IMG/VR virus record: IMGVR_UViG_3300021197_000762
Location: 1-30,300 of that record
Strand: one strand, 5' to 3'
Source: a virus
Taxonomy: Duplodnaviria; Caudoviricetes
Length of the DNA: 30,300 nucleotides
Position numbers and translations under genes: made by a program. Shown here in pieces: positions 20,088 through 27,879 of this stretch. The notes under the pieces were generated by a model. The model saw only the letters and a program-made list of their open reading frames with translations. It ran no database searches and was not told where the DNA came from. Numbering within the stretch: position 1 is the first letter of the stretch; each line of letters starts with the position of its first letter.

Positions 20088-21592
20088 TAGTAGTATTTCG
20101 CCCTTCTTTGGTAAAATTCGTTATCTGCCTGATCAGTAGGTATTCTTATAAATCCACCTTGTCGAAATCGCAATAATGCCTGACTTGTTGAGTCTACTAA
20201 GTCATCGTGATCCCCATTTGGAAAAGATGCTACTTCTTCCATCACTTCCTCTGCCCATCGTTTCTCTGGACACCAAACCAATCCAGAATGAAATAAATCA
20301 GAAACAGCGTTTATACGGGCTATCTTATCAGAACCTTTGGAAGGTGTGTATTCTGATATAGGTATGCCTGTTTTTCTTAACTCATAAATTAAGGGTGCGC
20401 CTGCTGCTTTTTTCTCAACAAGTAATGTATCTGGTTGCCATTGTTCATAAAACTCATAGGCAGTTTGTTTTAATCTGGGAAACTCCATTCTGTCTTTGAA
20501 AGCATCGAGAAGTATTACGTTGGCTACTTCTTCTCCGTCTTCGTTGGTTTTATAAAATATGCCCCATGTTGTACAGGCAGAATAGTCTGCACGGTTATGT
20601 TTTTCAAATGCGGTATCCCAGCTTTGGATTACATAGTCGCAAGATGGTGGAGAGTCTCTTTCCCATATTTGCCACATATCACGTTTTACTATTGCCCCTT
20701 CCTCAGAGGTTGGGTTTTGTTGATATTGTGCCTCCCATTTGGAAACAGGCAATTCATCTCTGATTGCTTCTAATTCTTCCAGTTTCCAGAACTCTTGCCA
20801 TAGAGGATTTCCTGACGGCATTAATGCGGGTAGTTCTATGACTTCCCATTCATCTGTTTCTTTGACTATAGAGTTATGTAGTATCTGACCTGTAAGGTCT
20901 CGTTTAGACCAGCGTGTCATAACCAAAACTATTGATCCGCCTGGTTGTAGACGTTGTCTCGGACCTGAGCTATACCATTCATACACTTTGTCATATACAG
21001 AAGCTGAACCTTGCATAGCTTCTTGCTCTGAATGTGGGTCATCAATAATTAGAACATCAGCACCTTTACCAGTGACTGCACCGCCAACACCGATAGCGAA
21101 GTAGTCTCCACCTTTATTGGTATTCCAGCGTCCAGCAGCTTTTGAATCAGAAGATAGCTTTGTATTAAAAATAGACTGATAGTCGGGAGAACCTACCAGG
21201 TTTCGGACTTTACGTCCGAAGCCAACAGCTAACTCTGCTGTATGAGCAGTCTGTATTATCTTCTTCTCAGGATACATACCCAAATACCATGCAGGAAAGA
21301 GATAACTAGCAAACTCTGATTTAGTATGTCTAGGAGGCATATTCACAATAAGTCTCTTTAAGTCGCCATTAGCGACTCTTTCAAAGGCATCTGCCATGAT
21401 TGTATGATGATGTCCACCAATAAAAGCACTCCACATCTCTCTTACAAAAGGTAGAAAGGATTGCTGACACATAGCTTTCTTATGATTGGTCAATAAATCC
21501 CATATCTTATAAAGATCATCAGAGCCTTCAGGAAGCGTTTGTACCAGTTTAAGGTACTTCCTTATCTCTTTCTGTGTTAAGAGGTCGCTGAT
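20087..21592 (-). CDS. terL: Terminase large subunit
   Basis: Walker A MPPRHTKS, Walker B LIIDDP, MTRW, nuclease SWDTA, DYSA and HDD.VD. The frame is open upstream of the TTG at 21493 to an ATC at 21592 preceded by AGGAG; the start is uncertain. Confidence 0.93.
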   Translation of the reverse strand: MSDLLTQKEIRKYLKLVQTLPEGSDDLYKIWDLLTNHKKAMCQQSFLPFVREMWSAFIGGHHHTIMADAFERVANGDLKRLIVNMPPRHTKSEFASYLFPAWYLGMYPEKKIIQTAHTAELAVGFGRKVRNLVGSPDYQSIFNTKLSSDSKAAGRWNTNKGGDYFAIGVGGAVTGKGADVLIIDDPHSEQEAMQGSASVYDKVYEWYSSGPRQRLQPGGSIVLVMTRWSKRDLTGQILHNSIVKETDEWEVIELPALMPSGNPLWQEFWKLEELEAIRDELPVSKWEAQYQQNPTSEEGAIVKRDMWQIWERDSPPSCDYVIQSWDTAFEKHNRADYSACTTWGIFYKTNEDGEEVANVILLDAFKDRMEFPRLKQTAYEFYEQWQPDTLLVEKKAAGAPLIYELRKTGIPISEYTPSKGSDKIARINAVSDLFHSGLVWCPEKRWAEEVMEEVASFPNGDHDDLVDSTSQALLRFRQGGFIRIPTDQADNEFYQRRAKYY

Positions 21593-21813
21593 CGTCTTCT
21601 CCTGAGCTTTAAAGACCTTGCTTTCAATGGATCAACTGTTAAATGTTTACGATCTTTTAAATAATGAACAATTCTATGAATATTACTTCTACTTTTCATA
21701 TTCAAACCTGTAGCTATTTCTTGTAAACAAGGAGAAAACCCTTTTATGTCAATAAACAGTTTAATAAACTCCAACACCAGTCTTTGTTTTTCAGTAAGAG
21801 GCTTTTTTTTCAT
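21577..21813 (-). CDS. LexA-type winged-helix DNA-binding protein (no peptidase domain)
   Basis: LT.KQ..VL.FI......G.SP...EIA..L...S.S..H.....L...........R.L pattern of the LexA N-domain; 78 aa only. Confidence 0.8.
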   Translation of the reverse strand: MKKKPLTEKQRLVLEFIKLFIDIKGFSPCLQEIATGLNMKSRSNIHRIVHYLKDRKHLTVDPLKARSLKLRRRRSATS

Positions 21814-22624: not shown

Positions 22625-22874
22625 TGTGGATAACTTGTTAATAAGTCGATAGCAAGTTCTGTAATATTAATTAGGTACTCAAGTATGTGTTTAAACGCAA
22701 AGCCGTTGACAGCCCTCTGGTGAGGTCTCAGGGTTGTATGTGGATAACTTTCTTCACTACATATAGTATTCATATTTTTTTACTGTACTACATCCAGTAC
22801 ATTTTCCCGATTTTTCTGTGGATAACTCTGTGGATAACTTGCGTTTAAACCCTATTTTAACCCCCTGTGGATAA
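22625..22874. promoter_or_regulatory. Cluster of five perfect DnaA boxes (TTATCCACA on the minus strand)
   Basis: TGTGGATAA at 22625, 22739, 22817, 22829 and 22866, each followed by CT, all in the same orientation. Confidence 0.85.
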
Positions 22875-23023: not shown

Positions 23024-23052
23024 GTTGACAACGTGTCAACGTTTGCTATTAT
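23024..23052 (+). promoter_or_regulatory. Sigma70-type early promoter with overlapping palindrome
   Basis: TTGACA (23025)-16 nt-TATTAT (23047) with a TGn extension; GTTGACA-ACG-TGTCAAC inverted repeat. Confidence 0.75.
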
Positions 23053-23094
23053 TAACTCATGCAAACAAACAAACCAATCAAAAAGGAAATGCCT

Positions 23095-23556
23095 ATGAAT
23101 ACTACTACTACTCCTAAAAATACTACTGCTCCTAAATGGTCTGAGACATTAGCAAAATTTAAATCAGCTTGGGTTTCTAAATGCAAAAAAGAATCAAAAA
23201 TATCTAGAGACGAAGTTTTAAATGTTTTGATTTCGCTGTCTTGCACATTAGAAGACGTTCGCTCGATCAAGTCTAGCTTAAATACGAAAAGCTTTTATCT
23301 CATGCTTTCGGACGCAACTACAGAGCAATTAGTATTCCTATGTGACAGTGAAAGAAAGTTTTCAAAAAAAGAATTTTTAGAAATTGTTGAAAATTTTATT
23401 TTTGAACATGATAGTGATAGGGGTTTGGTTTATCCTCACGACAGTGAAGAAATTGAAAAAATTGTCAAATGCTTTTTTGATAACACAACTCGTATTGACT
23501 GCACTTGGAAAGACTTTGAAAACTATGTATTGACTCCGCTTTTATTTTGCAGTTGA
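23095..23556 (+). CDS. First early gene, hypothetical protein
   Basis: ORF 23059-23556; AAGGA spacing favours the ATG at 23095. No recognised family. Confidence 0.7.
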   Translation: MNTTTTPKNTTAPKWSETLAKFKSAWVSKCKKESKISRDEVLNVLISLSCTLEDVRSIKSSLNTKSFYLMLSDATTEQLVFLCDSERKFSKKEFLEIVENFIFEHDSDRGLVYPHDSEEIEKIVKCFFDNTTRIDCTWKDFENYVLTPLLFCS

Positions 23557-23565
23557 GAATTATCA

Positions 23566-23615
23566 GGTTGTCTGATGAGGATTTAATATCCGAAACCCCC
23601 TTGGGGGTCACAACC
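23566..23615 (+). ncRNA. Hammerhead ribozyme, type I
   Basis: Stem I GGUUGU/ACAACC, core CUGAUGA, stem II GGAU/AUCC, GAAA, stem III CCCCC/GGGGG, GUC cleavage triplet (C23609); entirely intergenic. Confidence 0.92.
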
Positions 23616-23631
23616 AAAAGAGAAAAGGAAA

Positions 23632-24345
23632 ATGCCTATGGATAAGATACACACAACATCACAAGCATGGCTCGAAGATGCACTGCATCAGGCTCACGAC
23701 AAAATTGGTCTATTGACTGGCGGTCAATTTGCTTTCCCTAAATTAGAAGACATTGATATCACTTGCGGTTTTCCTACTACCAAGGCTAGATCGGTAGAGA
23801 AAAAGGGCAAGTCCTCACATGATTGGAGTTTACAGGGCGGTCACATTATTAGTATTAGTCCTACACTGGTTGATCCAGTGCAAGTGATGTTCGAGGTTGT
23901 AGTCTCTCTGGCTAAGTCTAGCGTTGCAATGCACATGGTAGCCAACAACAAAAAAGTTACTCACATTCCTAATCCTGACCATTACGGCAGTCATCTTACA
24001 GTCAATTGCAGAGAAGTTGCTCGTATTATCAGATTCATTGGTGCTGACACTTCCAAGCCTAGTCAACCAACTATGAATAGTCACTTTAGAGATATCTGGG
24101 CTGATCTGGTTGCATCCTTTGGGGCTTATCCAAATGATAAATCGCATCAATTAAAGGGCGGTAAAAAAGACACTACCAGACTGGTAGTAGGAACTTGTAA
24201 GGGTTGTGGATACAAGTCTTACACAGTGATGACTCACTTAGCCAGAGCATTATTGGTTTGTCCTGTTACTAATTGCTCAAGGCATGGAATGTCTTTTAGT
24301 TACACAGATTCTAGAGTTGTTAACCTCTACCCAAATTCACAATAA
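23632..24345 (+). CDS. SprT-like protein with C-terminal Zn finger, HExxH not present
   Basis: CGFP, I.ISP.L.DP and KK.TTR....C..CGY....CP..C motifs; the start may be 23638. Confidence 0.6.
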   Translation: MPMDKIHTTSQAWLEDALHQAHDKIGLLTGGQFAFPKLEDIDITCGFPTTKARSVEKKGKSSHDWSLQGGHIISISPTLVDPVQVMFEVVVSLAKSSVAMHMVANNKKVTHIPNPDHYGSHLTVNCREVARIIRFIGADTSKPSQPTMNSHFRDIWADLVASFGAYPNDKSHQLKGGKKDTTRLVVGTCKGCGYKSYTVMTHLARALLVCPVTNCSRHGMSFSYTDSRVVNLYPNSQ

Positions 24346-24358
24346 GGAAAAAATAATT

Positions 24359-25999
24359 ATGAAAAATTCATTAAAAAACCAAATCCGCACTCACGTTGCT
24401 ATGAAAAATTCAGATTCTCTTTTGAGTTGGGCGGGATTCGTTCTAACCCTCTACCCAAATTGCATTGATGATATTTCAGAATTAAAAAATGTTAAGGATG
24501 TTGTTAAGGAATTGAGTGCTTGTAAGAGAATTGATGCACAGAAATTTTTAACCAATTGGATTCCTCAAATGTTCATCACAGTTTTTGAAAAAAAGATTTT
24601 AGGTTGGGACAAACCAGCAAATTCTACTGCTTGGTCTGAGTACAAAGACTTTATCGACAATCAACTAAAGGGTTTAAACGTGTCAAAGTCTACAGCGTCA
24701 GTTCAGTTTGATGCCAACAAAATACAGGCAGATTTGAATTCTCAAGTCGCTGATGTAAGCAGTCAGGTCAACTCAGCCTTGACCGTTGCTACTGAATTGA
24801 CAAACAAATTTGAAAAGGTTGAGAAGAATATTGCCAAGGCTAAGACTCAATTAGACGATGGATTGAAACAGGGTCTGACAGACATATCTCAAGCAGTGAC
24901 TCCAAGTCAGTCAGCTATCGACTTGGCTGTTAGCAAAACCCTTGCTCCAATCATCAAGAAAAGTTCTACTGATCCAGTCGCTAAAAAAGTTTTGACTGAT
25001 CTCGCACAATCTACTGGGACGTTTAAACTCGTTAAGGTTAGAGATATATTCAACAAAGCTGAGTACAGTTATGACTACAAGGACGAGACTGTTGACTTCG
25101 GAGAAATTGAAGTTCAAGTTTTTGATGGTACAGATTCTCCCGTTGCTGACCCTAATTATATTTTTCAACCAAAAGTTTTGCATCAGGCATTAAATTGTAT
25201 CCGCAAAAAATTACCGATCCCTGTATGGCTATCTGGTCAAAAGGGTACAGGCAAAACTTCTTTTGTGGAACAACTTGCCAATCGCTTGGGCAGACAATTT
25301 TTCCGCATCAATATGAGAGAAAACATTGATGAGCAGATCATTGGCGGTCGTACAACTGATGACCAAGATTCATCAAAAATTGTGTTTAAACAGGGAGACT
25401 TTTTACGAGCAGTCCAAATCTCTGGAGCGTTTGTAGGATTAGATGAGTTCAGTTTTATACGTCCACAACTAAGTTGTCTGTTCCAACCTACGCTTGAGAC
25501 TAATGGCAATGGTGTCAGGGCTATCAGTGTCTCAGAGGAATGTCTCAGGGTTGTGTTCTCCGACTATGTTGGCATATTTGCTATGGATAACACGACTGGT
25601 TTGGGGGATGATTCTGGTAATTATGTTGGAGTCAAGGGTCAAAATGAGGCATTACTTGATAGGTTTGGTAAAACTTTATTAGTTGACTACTTACCATTTG
25701 CTGAAGAAGTTAAGTTACTTCAAAAACGTGTGGCAGTCAGCAAGCAAATCGCTGAGTCGATTGTATCATTCGCAAAAACTTCCAGACAAAAAGCTAAAGA
25801 TGGTTTACTTAATAGCCCAGTTTCACTACGTCAATTATTGGCTTGGGCTGAGGGTGTAAAAGATGGAGAACCAGTCGGTTTGGCTTTTGAGTCTTGTGTT
25901 CTAAACAAATTTCCAAGTGATGCTCACTCAGAATTATTGGCAGTATATGAGGTGGAGATTGACGAGAATGACTTTAAAAAATTTGCGAGGGGTCTATAA
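24359..25999 (+). CDS. MoxR-clade AAA+ ATPase (CbbQ/NirQ/NorQ/CobS-like) with long N-terminal coiled coil
   Basis: Walker A GQKGTGKT, RIN, Walker B VGLDE, N.ALLDRF and SLRQL; ATG at 24359 with AAGGA. Confidence 0.88.
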   Translation: MKNSLKNQIRTHVAMKNSDSLLSWAGFVLTLYPNCIDDISELKNVKDVVKELSACKRIDAQKFLTNWIPQMFITVFEKKILGWDKPANSTAWSEYKDFIDNQLKGLNVSKSTASVQFDANKIQADLNSQVADVSSQVNSALTVATELTNKFEKVEKNIAKAKTQLDDGLKQGLTDISQAVTPSQSAIDLAVSKTLAPIIKKSSTDPVAKKVLTDLAQSTGTFKLVKVRDIFNKAEYSYDYKDETVDFGEIEVQVFDGTDSPVADPNYIFQPKVLHQALNCIRKKLPIPVWLSGQKGTGKTSFVEQLANRLGRQFFRINMRENIDEQIIGGRTTDDQDSSKIVFKQGDFLRAVQISGAFVGLDEFSFIRPQLSCLFQPTLETNGNGVRAISVSEECLRVVFSDYVGIFAMDNTTGLGDDSGNYVGVKGQNEALLDRFGKTLLVDYLPFAEEVKLLQKRVAVSKQIAESIVSFAKTSRQKAKDGLLNSPVSLRQLLAWAEGVKDGEPVGLAFESCVLNKFPSDAHSELLAVYEVEIDENDFKKFARGL

Positions 26000-26740
26000 A
26001 TGATGAGGACATTTAACTCAATACTTCAGAATGCTCCAAGCAACTTGGGTGCTTTAAGATCAAATCTTTTGAGGGCATTACGATCTGAAGACTACTACGG
26101 TAAGTCAGTCTATGAGGAGAGTGGGCGTTTAAACTGTAAGCAATTAGCCAATTTAAAACTTGGTAGACAGGACGTTTTCTTCAAGACTGACAGGCGTGAT
26201 GAGGAAAATTCTGCTGTTTCACTGATGATTGATTTGTCTGGGTCAATGCACAATGAGGACAGAAATGGTACAAGTTCAATTAACGTTGCGACAGAGACAA
26301 CTGTCCAACTTGCCAACATCATCAACAAGACCAGTTCAACACTTTCAGTCAATGGTTATAACTCTTATCGCACTTTTTCGATCTTTCAATTCAAGACATG
26401 GGCAGAGAGTTTAAACGCCAAGACAAAGCAAAACATTGCCAATATGAGGGGCTGTGTTGGATGGTCTACCCCAGTTGTACAAGCGTATCAATGGCAACTA
26501 GAAGACTTGGATAAAGTCAATGCTTTCAAAAAAATTGCAGTATTTATTACTGATGATTCTGTTTATGAGTATGAGGAAAAAGCAATGGATCATTACAGTG
26601 AAATGGCTGACCAGATGGGAATCAATGTCGTAATAATTTCTATCGGTGCTGATTTAAAAATCAGAAACTCAATAAGGATTGATAAAGTTTCTGACATGGG
26701 CGGTGTTGTTATGTCGAACATTTTAAAGAAAATAAAATAA
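26000..26740 (+). CDS. vWA domain protein (CobT/NorD C-terminal-like)
   Basis: SGRL....L, VF.K, MIDAS IDLSGSM, STP and FITD. Confidence 0.85.
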   Translation: MMRTFNSILQNAPSNLGALRSNLLRALRSEDYYGKSVYEESGRLNCKQLANLKLGRQDVFFKTDRRDEENSAVSLMIDLSGSMHNEDRNGTSSINVATETTVQLANIINKTSSTLSVNGYNSYRTFSIFQFKTWAESLNAKTKQNIANMRGCVGWSTPVVQAYQWQLEDLDKVNAFKKIAVFITDDSVYEYEEKAMDHYSEMADQMGINVVIISIGADLKIRNSIRIDKVSDMGGVVMSNILKKIK

Positions 26741-26741
26741 T

Positions 26742-26771
26742 TGTTGACAAATCGTCAACAGTAACTACAAT
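26742..26771 (+). promoter_or_regulatory. Sigma70-type promoter with overlapping palindrome
   Basis: TTGACA (26744)-16 nt-TACAAT (26766); TGTTGAC-AAATC-GTCAACA. Confidence 0.75.
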
Positions 26772-26790: not shown

Positions 26791-27879
26791 ATGAAAAATA
26801 TAAAAGGCTACCAATTAACCAAAGTTTTAACCGCAACACTCGAAAGATTATTTAAATCTTATAACACATTCAAGTCCGATAAGATTGAGATTGAACTCAA
26901 GCAATGGAGTCAGGACACAATGGGCGTTAAGTATCGTACAAGTTCTGATGGTGTCTTTGTTAAGATTGTCGTGCCATCTATTGATGACACTGCCACATAC
27001 TCGCAAGAGCAAGTCAATCACTTGATCGCTTTAGTGTTCCACGAAGTCGGACACGTTTTGTTTACCAACACAAAAGATTGGGATGATTCAGTTGCACGCT
27101 TTAAAGAAGATTATCCTGACCACAGCAAATTTTTCTTTAACTTGATCAACGGTCTTGAGGACGTTAGGCAAGAGCAACTCCTTATTGAAAGAACTTCTAA
27201 AAATGCCAAGCCTTTGTTGGTCAAGTTGTTAAATGACATGATCAAAAAAGGTAACGGTCTCCCAGAAACAAATGACTTTCTAAACATTCCATTCACACTT
27301 GCTGTAGAGGGTAGACGTTTAAACGGTTACAAGGTTGATTACGATTTTGACTGGAGTACTTGCCCTTGGAAAGAAGAAATAGATTGTTCCTTGGATGCTT
27401 TAAGATCAGCTAAAAGCACACTGGACGTAACAAACATTGCTCTTACACTTTGGTACTCACTTGAAAAATATTTAGCTAAGGGTCAACTCCCTGATCAGCC
27501 CCAAGAAGAGGGGGCAGAACAAAGTGAGGAAGAATCTCAAGAGGACGGTCAGGACGATTCTCAGGAGTCTGGGAGCGATTCTCAGGACGATTCTCAAGAG
27601 TCTGATTCAGAATCTGGAGAAGATTCTGGAGAAGAGTCTGAGGGAGATTCTGAGGGAGATTCTCAGGGGGATTCTCAGCCATCAAATGATGACAATGTTG
27701 CTGATGATAACTCATATTCGGACTATGGACGTACCGTTGAGCCATCCGCTAATGATGATCTACCACGCTTGGACGATCAGGTGTTTAGATCACATAGCAT
27801 GGTTGTTGGTTCAGAATATTCTCTTAAACCAAGATTGCAGAAAGTAGCATTCAATGACCGTGGGAGATGGTTGAGATGA
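26791..27879 (+). CDS. HExxH metallopeptidase-like protein (CobT N-terminal-like) with acidic tail
   Basis: HEVGH.LFT followed by N.LED.R.E; D/E/S/G-rich segment near the C-terminus. Confidence 0.8.
   Translation: MKNIKGYQLTKVLTATLERLFKSYNTFKSDKIEIELKQWSQDTMGVKYRTSSDGVFVKIVVPSIDDTATYSQEQVNHLIALVFHEVGHVLFTNTKDWDDSVARFKEDYPDHSKFFFNLINGLEDVRQEQLLIERTSKNAKPLLVKLLNDMIKKGNGLPETNDFLNIPFTLAVEGRRLNGYKVDYDFDWSTCPWKEEIDCSLDALRSAKSTLDVTNIALTLWYSLEKYLAKGQLPDQPQEEGAEQSEEESQEDGQDDSQESGSDSQDDSQESDSESGEDSGEESEGDSEGDSQGDSQPSNDDNVADDNSYSDYGRTVEPSANDDLPRLDDQVFRSHSMVVGSEYSLKPRLQKVAFNDRGRWLR
27530..27680 (+). repeat. Degenerate 12-nt tandem repeats encoding the acidic linker
   Basis: GATTCTCAGGA / GATTCTGAGGGA units (DSQE, DSEG, DSQG). 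Confidence 0.7.

Follow-up and report, generated by a model that had tools for sequence, protein, structure and literature searches.

A compact type I hammerhead ribozyme between early genes of an aquatic phage and its possible role in processing the early message

The plus strand of the window, by which we mean the whole 30,300-nucleotide stretch of viral DNA analysed here, carries at 23566–23615 an element that, judged by its letters and by comparison with its relatives, is a real type I hammerhead ribozyme. It falls into a compact type I subfamily which, as far as pattern searches indicate, is widespread before many different genes in unrelated aquatic phages. We hold at about even probability that a single cut in cis after C23609 would yield a downstream message with a 5'-hydroxyl end and a 28-nt leader, decaying separately from and more slowly than the piece that carries the preceding gene.

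The window, a linear virus record with an estimated completeness of 50%, occurs in marine and aquatic runs; its structural genes lie on the minus strand and its early genes on the plus strand. The features on which the argument draws are listed below, and the two promoter-like sites among them are consensus matches only, since the promoter scan as a whole yields no more sites than shuffles do.

23025..23052, plus strand: sigma-70-like early promoter, 11 of 12 consensus positions, a consensus match only
23059..23556, plus strand: gene 1, likely start 23095; would lie on the 5' cleavage product
23560..23566, plus strand: segment complementary to the core (seven pairs with 23572–23578), predicted to form a competing hairpin
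23565, plus strand: A2.7, unpaired, 5' of stem I; candidate tertiary-contact residue
23566..23615, plus strand: type I hammerhead ribozyme with stem I open, from sequence, descriptor and shuffles, and covariation
23566..23571, plus strand: stem I 5' strand GGUUGU, pairing with ACAACC at 23610–23615
23572..23578, plus strand: catalytic core C3–A9, CUGAUGA, read from the sequence
23579..23591, plus strand: stem II, 4 bp (GGAU 23579–23582 with AUCC 23588–23591), loop UUAAU
23592..23608, plus strand: G12–A14 (GAA, 23592–23594), then stem III, from folding
23609..23610, plus strand: predicted cleavage site after C17 (C23609) of the GUC triplet, from the hammerhead consensus
23610..23637, plus strand: predicted A-rich 28-nt leader of the 3' product, with SD-like AAGGA at 23625–23629
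23616..23617, plus strand: A1.7 and A1.8, unpaired, 3' of stem I; candidate tertiary-contact residues
23638..24345, plus strand: SprT-like family gene without HExxH (phrog_6361); would be the first gene of the 3' product
24362..25999, plus strand: MoxR/CobS-like AAA+ ATPase (Pfam AAA_5 and CbbQ_C; phrog_249)
26000..26740, plus strand: vWA-like gene with a DxSxS motif in translation (phrog_1576)
26744..26771: second promoter-like site, a consensus match only

The intercistronic position assigned to the ribozyme in the preliminary description agrees with this map, the element lying downstream of the strong sigma-70-like promoter and on the same strand, 9 nt after the stop of gene 1 (which ends at 23556). 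It does not head the operon, as had also been claimed, since it comes after gene 1, a gene with no Pfam or PHROG match and no relative among viral contigs. The earlier figure of 22–28 nt from cut to start is reproduced by the ATGs at 23632 and 23638, which lie 22 and 28 nt past the predicted cut; an SD spacing of 8 nt, against 2 nt, favours the ATG at 23638 and hence the 28-nt leader. One motif of ribosome-binding site and start, in which two ATGs stand six bases apart, occurs both before gene 1 (at 23082–23097) and before the SprT-like gene (at 23624–23640). 'SprT' is here a family label by homology only: a relative matches phage proteins annotated as SprT-like, and the HExxH zinc motif, present in 129 of 149 SprT profile matches, is absent from the window protein and its nearest relatives. 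The protein is likely a non-catalytic member beside the MoxR-like AAA+ and vWA pair, of which the vWA-like gene (26000..26740) has no Pfam match.

Several other elements of the window deserve mention in their own right. The palindrome GTTTAAAC occurs at 27 sites from 165 to 29788, against 1.08 expected; it is enriched in most SprT–AAA relatives too and not in unrelated hammerhead loci, nothing on it was found in the literature searched, and it is possibly a protein-binding or a packaging/uptake signal. Five perfect boxes of TTATCCACA, which we take to be the DnaA-box consensus, stand in one orientation at 22625–22874 (0.39 expected) in the gap between the divergent gene blocks and form a candidate origin or DnaA sink. 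The inverted repeat GTTGAC-N5-GTCAAC, found twice (23024–23040 and 26743–26759; 0.02 expected), overlaps the -35 box at each of the two strong early promoters and is a candidate operator to which the LexA-like DNA-binding protein encoded at 21577–21813 might bind. Low-complexity 12/33-nt repeats at 27532–27677 encode an acidic Ser/Asp/Glu/Gly tract in the CobT-like gene 26791–27879.

The core of the hammerhead is complete in the window copy (C3 U4 G5 A6 N7 G8 A9, G12 A13 A14, A15.1–U16.1, H17) and all three helices are present; together with the shuffles and the covariation described here, this upholds the claim of an intact type I hammerhead. Across both strands of the window 23566–23615 is the sole type I descriptor match, and no reading as type II or III came out of the descriptor search. 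When the window was shuffled with dinucleotides preserved, a match at stem lengths 6/4/4 appeared in 0 of 1500 cases, with 8 of 1500 at the looser 4/3/3 and 68 of 1500 at 3/2/2. The minimum free energy structure of the isolated 57-mer is the hammerhead fold, its energy not being unusual (z -0.89). Stem III had been drawn as CCCCC-uu-GGGGG, with a 2-nt loop that is not feasible; folding gives instead the A15.1–U16.1 pair (A23595–U23608) and four C–G pairs closed by a CUUG loop. The predicted position of the cut, 3' of C17, is that of the hammerhead consensus.

When the window copy is aligned with nine copies from related operons, 159 of 159 cells are paired, against 32–45% in slid controls. Two-sided (compensatory) changes occur at 11 of 16 pairs in this 10-copy alignment (A5), and at 6 of 6 in stem I, in sequences that are related, so that the changes are not independent events. 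The suggested check with hammerhead models came back negative: Rfam 15 returned no hammerhead match over the whole window at E<=1 or over the 271 bases around the motif at E<=10, and the identification therefore rests on the consensus core and the comparative evidence. One metatranscriptome contig matches 23411–23611 with no mismatch and ends 2 nt past the site; a second, from the same study, crosses the site (23553–23682). Both are unstranded contigs, which cannot show RNA ends and could derive from DNA. The RNA runs X17 and X20 are represented by small shares and contigs only, and are left out as evidence of transcription or cleavage.

A first broad pattern had returned 44 loci with other type I hammerheads and no relatives of the window's early genes. 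The subfamily pattern, drawn from 10 copies, fixed the core, a 13-nt stem II and a CCC/GGG stem III, which are thus shared by construction, and left stem I, its flanks, the loop II letters and the downstream gene unspecified. It returned 133 loci from 27 of the 64 parts of the viral collection, with about 280 stretches estimated; 133 of the 135 distinct matches have three stems, and a few are training copies found again. Stem I is exactly 6 bp long in 125 of the 135, though this was not asked for. Among 96 representatives (matches with a 6-bp stem I, below 85% identity), A2.7 is conserved in 100%, G2.6/C1.6 in 95%, A1.7 in 99% and A1.8 in 85%, and loop II reads U-N-A-N-U, with its U, A and U at 99, 92 and 77%. 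The window copy has all of these signature bases, its stem II loop UUAAU fitting the loop consensus.

The placement of the subfamily is equally uniform. An AUG opening a frame of at least 30 codons lies 19–37 nt past the cut in 79 of the 96 representatives, as against 8 of 96 on the opposite strand, and the upstream stop lies -4 to 20 nt from C3 in 99 of the 105 copies in which a stop was found (133 examined). Conservation of position, proposed earlier as a check, is thus borne out for the placement before a start codon, which fits mRNA processing; the conserved distance to the AUG is also partly expected for any element in a compact intergenic gap. Elsewhere in the subfamily a locus holds up to five copies. 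The catalytic core is common to the window copy and the Rfam hammerheads (Hammerhead_3 RF00008, HH9 RF02275, RAGATH-1-hammerhead RF03152 and others); 15 of 20 subfamily loci, nevertheless, have no Rfam hammerhead match at E<=1, and the other five have sub-threshold ones. Such matches in subfamily members are weak and partial, with scores (HH9 22–25 bits, RAGATH-1 33 bits, Hammerhead_3 29 bits) all under the gathering scores (52, 56.3 and 48.5). The open literature searched, a scope that excludes the published alignments of Perreault et al., held no paper on the compact subfamily, and the window hammerhead possibly belongs to an uncatalogued hammerhead variant. The cultured Agrobacterium phage OLIVR1 (MT234338.1; L266, 2500–2556) carries an unannotated hammerhead between small early genes, a close match to the subfamily model R1 at 48.4 bits.

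How might loop II be held in such a compact fold? A pairing of the upstream AUUA (23559–23562) with the UAAU of loop II had been put forward. This finds no support: marine relatives that keep the ribozyme have the AUUA replaced, and in the 96 representatives the complementarity of loop II to the 5' flank is 0.24 observed and 0.23 swapped. Over the same representatives the downstream flank gives 0.11 observed and 0.13 swapped, and there is no covariation between loop II and the flanks (best mutual-information z 2.0); the invariant loop U/A and flanking As cannot show any. The fixed 6-bp stem I, the invariant unpaired As and the loop U/A suggest instead a non-canonical contact, in which loop II (U-N-A-N-U) would touch the unpaired As closing stem I. 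In other hammerheads, reverse Hoogsteen pairs are a conserved feature (PMC6155905).

No close relative of the early operon emerged when viral contigs were searched with single proteins, metagenome contigs with an AAA alignment and GTDB genomes with a SprT alignment, and a DNA pattern search of metagenome contigs returned the window itself (L053) alone. Close variation is known from marine contigs and predicted proteins only, without flanking-DNA relatives. The marine contigs keep the motif from 23562 or 23553 onward and differ upstream of that point; for relatives about 92% identical in DNA, two loop III bases are the only changes listed within 23566–23615. An N-terminal extension of the SprT-like protein through the motif, as in gene calls P0002, P0003, P0172, P0174 and P0175, was rejected as a likely calling artefact because the frame ends in a stop in the window.

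The AAA protein alone fetched eight loci at 24–30% identity; in two of them a type I hammerhead precedes the SprT-like start by 27 nt. In a set of 84 loci with SprT-like genes (the best 80 of 149 SprT matches and four AAA-fetched loci; 81 with at least 1200 nt upstream), nine carry a hammerhead, one each, all on the sense strand and intercistronic, after the first to fourth early gene; a covariance model built from these nine found no further copy. A special link to the SprT–AAA–vWA genes, claimed in the preliminary description, finds no support in these counts, the ribozyme lying directly before the SprT-like gene in only two of the 84 loci, or in the subfamily, where the fetched flanks match SprT or AAA in no more than 7 of 81 long loci and match neither in the other 74. 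After clustering, the hammerhead occurs in 8 of 44 SprT clusters, in three separate groups whose sisters are without it; it is thus dispensable. One locus (L051) has an extra gene-plus-ribozyme unit relative to two others (L050 and L052). The window protein sits on a very long branch of the SprT tree, for which reason its ribozyme is not taken as an orthologue of the copies in freshwater-type relatives.

What could the ribozyme do for the early message? We hypothesize that the early transcript would start at the promoter at 23025 and be cut once, in cis, after C23609, and that the 3' product, with its 5'-hydroxyl end and 28-nt leader, would thereby be uncoupled from gene 1; decaying independently, the downstream message would likely outlast the gene 1 piece. 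Stop codon, ribozyme and ribosome-binding site would form a portable cassette that gives any next gene a standard 5' end, and the presence of near-identical motifs before start codons in many unrelated phages suggests that the cut likely provides a uniform fresh 5' end. The absence of a protective hairpin from the predicted leader counts against stabilisation, and a host with RNase J would degrade a 5'-hydroxyl end. In phage T7, RNase III cuts one long early transcript between its genes; the T7 sites are several, need the host enzyme and leave a 5'-monophosphate, and their likeness to the window ribozyme is an analogy of role only.

Hammerheads between phage genes have been described before, as have the way they cluster and their activity in long transcripts, and the processing hypothesis is likewise already in print (Perreault et al. 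2011, PMC3088659). The published copies have a canonical core, lie between genes of phage operons and have variable neighbours, and the window and related hammerheads are likewise intergenic and on the sense strand of phage operons with variable neighbours; the arrangement is thus already known, the copy itself being new. Those hammerheads are often clustered and were proposed to process polycistronic RNA, whereas the window holds a single copy; about 40% of them have a loop II pseudoknot and the window copy has none; and the fixed 6-bp stem I, unpaired As and U-N-A-N-U loop set the window subfamily apart from that set as its text describes it (PMC3088659). Cleavage by clustered phage hammerheads occurs both within 2-kb transcripts and in E. 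coli; in haloviruses HF1/HF2 a hammerhead lies 13 nt before an early start codon, and the 5' end of a halovirus early mRNA maps within 3 nt of a hammerhead site (PMC3088659). As for the fate of the product, 5'-hydroxyl substrates are poor for 5'-end-dependent RNase E cleavage, and direct entry of RNase E on single-stranded RNA bypasses the 5' end (PMC2948425). The engineered RiboJ is similar in that a self-cleaving ribozyme just before the ribosome-binding site fixes the 5' end whatever lies upstream, and it raises transcript level about twofold; it differs in keeping a 23-nt hairpin at the new 5' end (PMC6206723), to which this effect may be due, whereas the predicted window leader is unstructured, retains no hairpin and follows an intercistronic site. 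The role of phage hammerheads is still open in reviews (PMC6155905, PMC6765202).

Other readings of the cut have to be weighed against cis processing in favour of the downstream message. That cleavage mainly shortens the life of the gene 1 message or lowers downstream expression, instead of stabilising the downstream part, we hold to be rather unlikely: the 5' product would end about 53 nt past the gene 1 stop with only weak stem II/III hairpins, the ribozyme follows the first to fourth gene in related operons and the 3' leader is unstructured and A-rich, yet it is the spacing to the AUG downstream that is conserved (79 of 96) while the identity of the upstream gene varies freely, and 3' exonucleases may be slowed by the 2',3'-cyclic phosphate itself. 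Translation might also gate the ribozyme, the hairpin between 23560–23566 and the core keeping it off until a ribosome ending gene 1 melts the hairpin. Folding in native context gives this hairpin a probability of 0.90–0.98 and stem I one of 0.01–0.10, and masking bases to 23562–23564, as a terminating ribosome would, brings stem I back to 0.73–0.75; a marine relative with different upstream sequence has, by eye, a longer complement to the core and stem II, and the closeness of the upstream stop (99 of 105 copies) suits the idea. Masking to 23566 or beyond, however, abolishes stem I; anti-core pairing is not enriched family-wide (five or more pairs in 7 of 96, against 7.8 in swapped flanks); and a low predicted probability of stem I is a generic outcome (37 of 96 representatives below 0.1 and 18 of 96 below 0.02) in models that leave tertiary stabilisation out. 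Two marine variants, moreover, break the hairpin, a depth-2 contig by a change at 23564 and P0002 by the G at that position implied by its mis-extended N-terminus, as read back from the translated extension. We regard gating as unlikely. Equally unlikely in our view is that the cassette persists chiefly because it offers a short stretch of homology at which small early genes can be exchanged, with cleavage a tolerated by-product. Homology to the marine relatives begins abruptly at 23553 or 23562 with differing upstream sequences, L051 has a gene-plus-ribozyme unit that L050 and L052 do not, and copies are repeated within loci; but substitutions in the helices compensate one another, and the catalytic core and the unpaired signature do not vary, which points to selection on RNA structure, not on DNA identity, and core-dead copies are rare so far.

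The conserved spacing of 19–37 nt to the AUG could be taken to mean that the cut frees the ribosome-binding site of the next gene and in this way turns on or raises its translation, and self-cleavage does promote translation initiation in fungal and plant RNA viruses (PMC13725137). That eukaryotic case is one of cap-independent initiation, however, the window's SD lies outside the ribozyme fold, and the modelled opening energy of 23620–23650 falls from 6.0 to 4.5 kcal/mol on cleavage, a gain of only 1.5 kcal/mol; freeing the ribosome-binding site is thus an unlikely purpose of the cut, and we think this reading quite improbable. The predicted stem I probability of 0.014 in 50-nt context and an RNA contig that spans the site would suit a window copy that folds wrongly and has little activity in vivo, a relic within a family that is otherwise active. 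Its core and subfamily signature are intact, though, and relatives at about 92% identity differ inside the motif at two loop III bases only; we think a relic very unlikely. Cleavage of other early-message sites in trans is extremely improbable: no other site in the window (30.3 kb of a record about 50% complete) matches both binding arms; elsewhere on the plus strand the best candidates offer 6 Watson–Crick pairs against 11 in cis, and none of them lies before a gene start; the nine relatives add one candidate (L054, position 5232), far downstream of the early-gene cluster; and stem III is a closed G–C hairpin.

A second structured RNA recurs before the early genes of relatives. It consists of a hairpin of 9–12 bp, an A and a hairpin of 4–5 bp, the loop of the short hairpin complementing a segment 5' of the first, and it stands 16–28 nt before AUGs. 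Copies lie at:

L098, 3926–3981: second motif
L048, 4861–6775: second motif, four copies
L182, 3528–5051: second motif, four copies

In 28 aligned copies, picked by a descriptor that requires the two hairpins and not the third helix, 94.8% of cells pair, two-sided changes occur at 15 of 20 pairs, and 5 of the 6 pairs of the third helix covary. A model of the motif has 60 sense-strand matches at E<=1e-5 in 37 of the 84 loci, 28 of them being the training copies; it has no match in the window, and Rfam has no match on loci that carry the motif, which is apparently undescribed. In four loci (L182, L174, L091 and L063) the motif and the hammerhead take turns in the slots between a stop and the next start codon, and it is this context only that supports a view of the stop-to-start slots as sites where 5' ends are made. 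The motif may be a ribozyme; alternatively, it may be a long stem of the RNase III type which, once cut, refolds to leave a hairpin at the 5' terminus. To the more far-reaching idea that a hammerhead invisible to Rfam, with an undescribed contact between loop II and the end of stem I, and the second motif as an undescribed self-cleaving RNA are interchangeable 5'-end makers of aquatic phages, we give a low though appreciable probability.

The window copy alone does not settle what phage hammerheads are for, but it defines a large and uniform subfamily that Rfam misses. The fixed leader length, the pairs of loci with and without the ribozyme (L051 against L050) and the match in OLIVR1 make the processing idea directly testable, and OLIVR1 offers a practical test system for a hammerhead of this subfamily.
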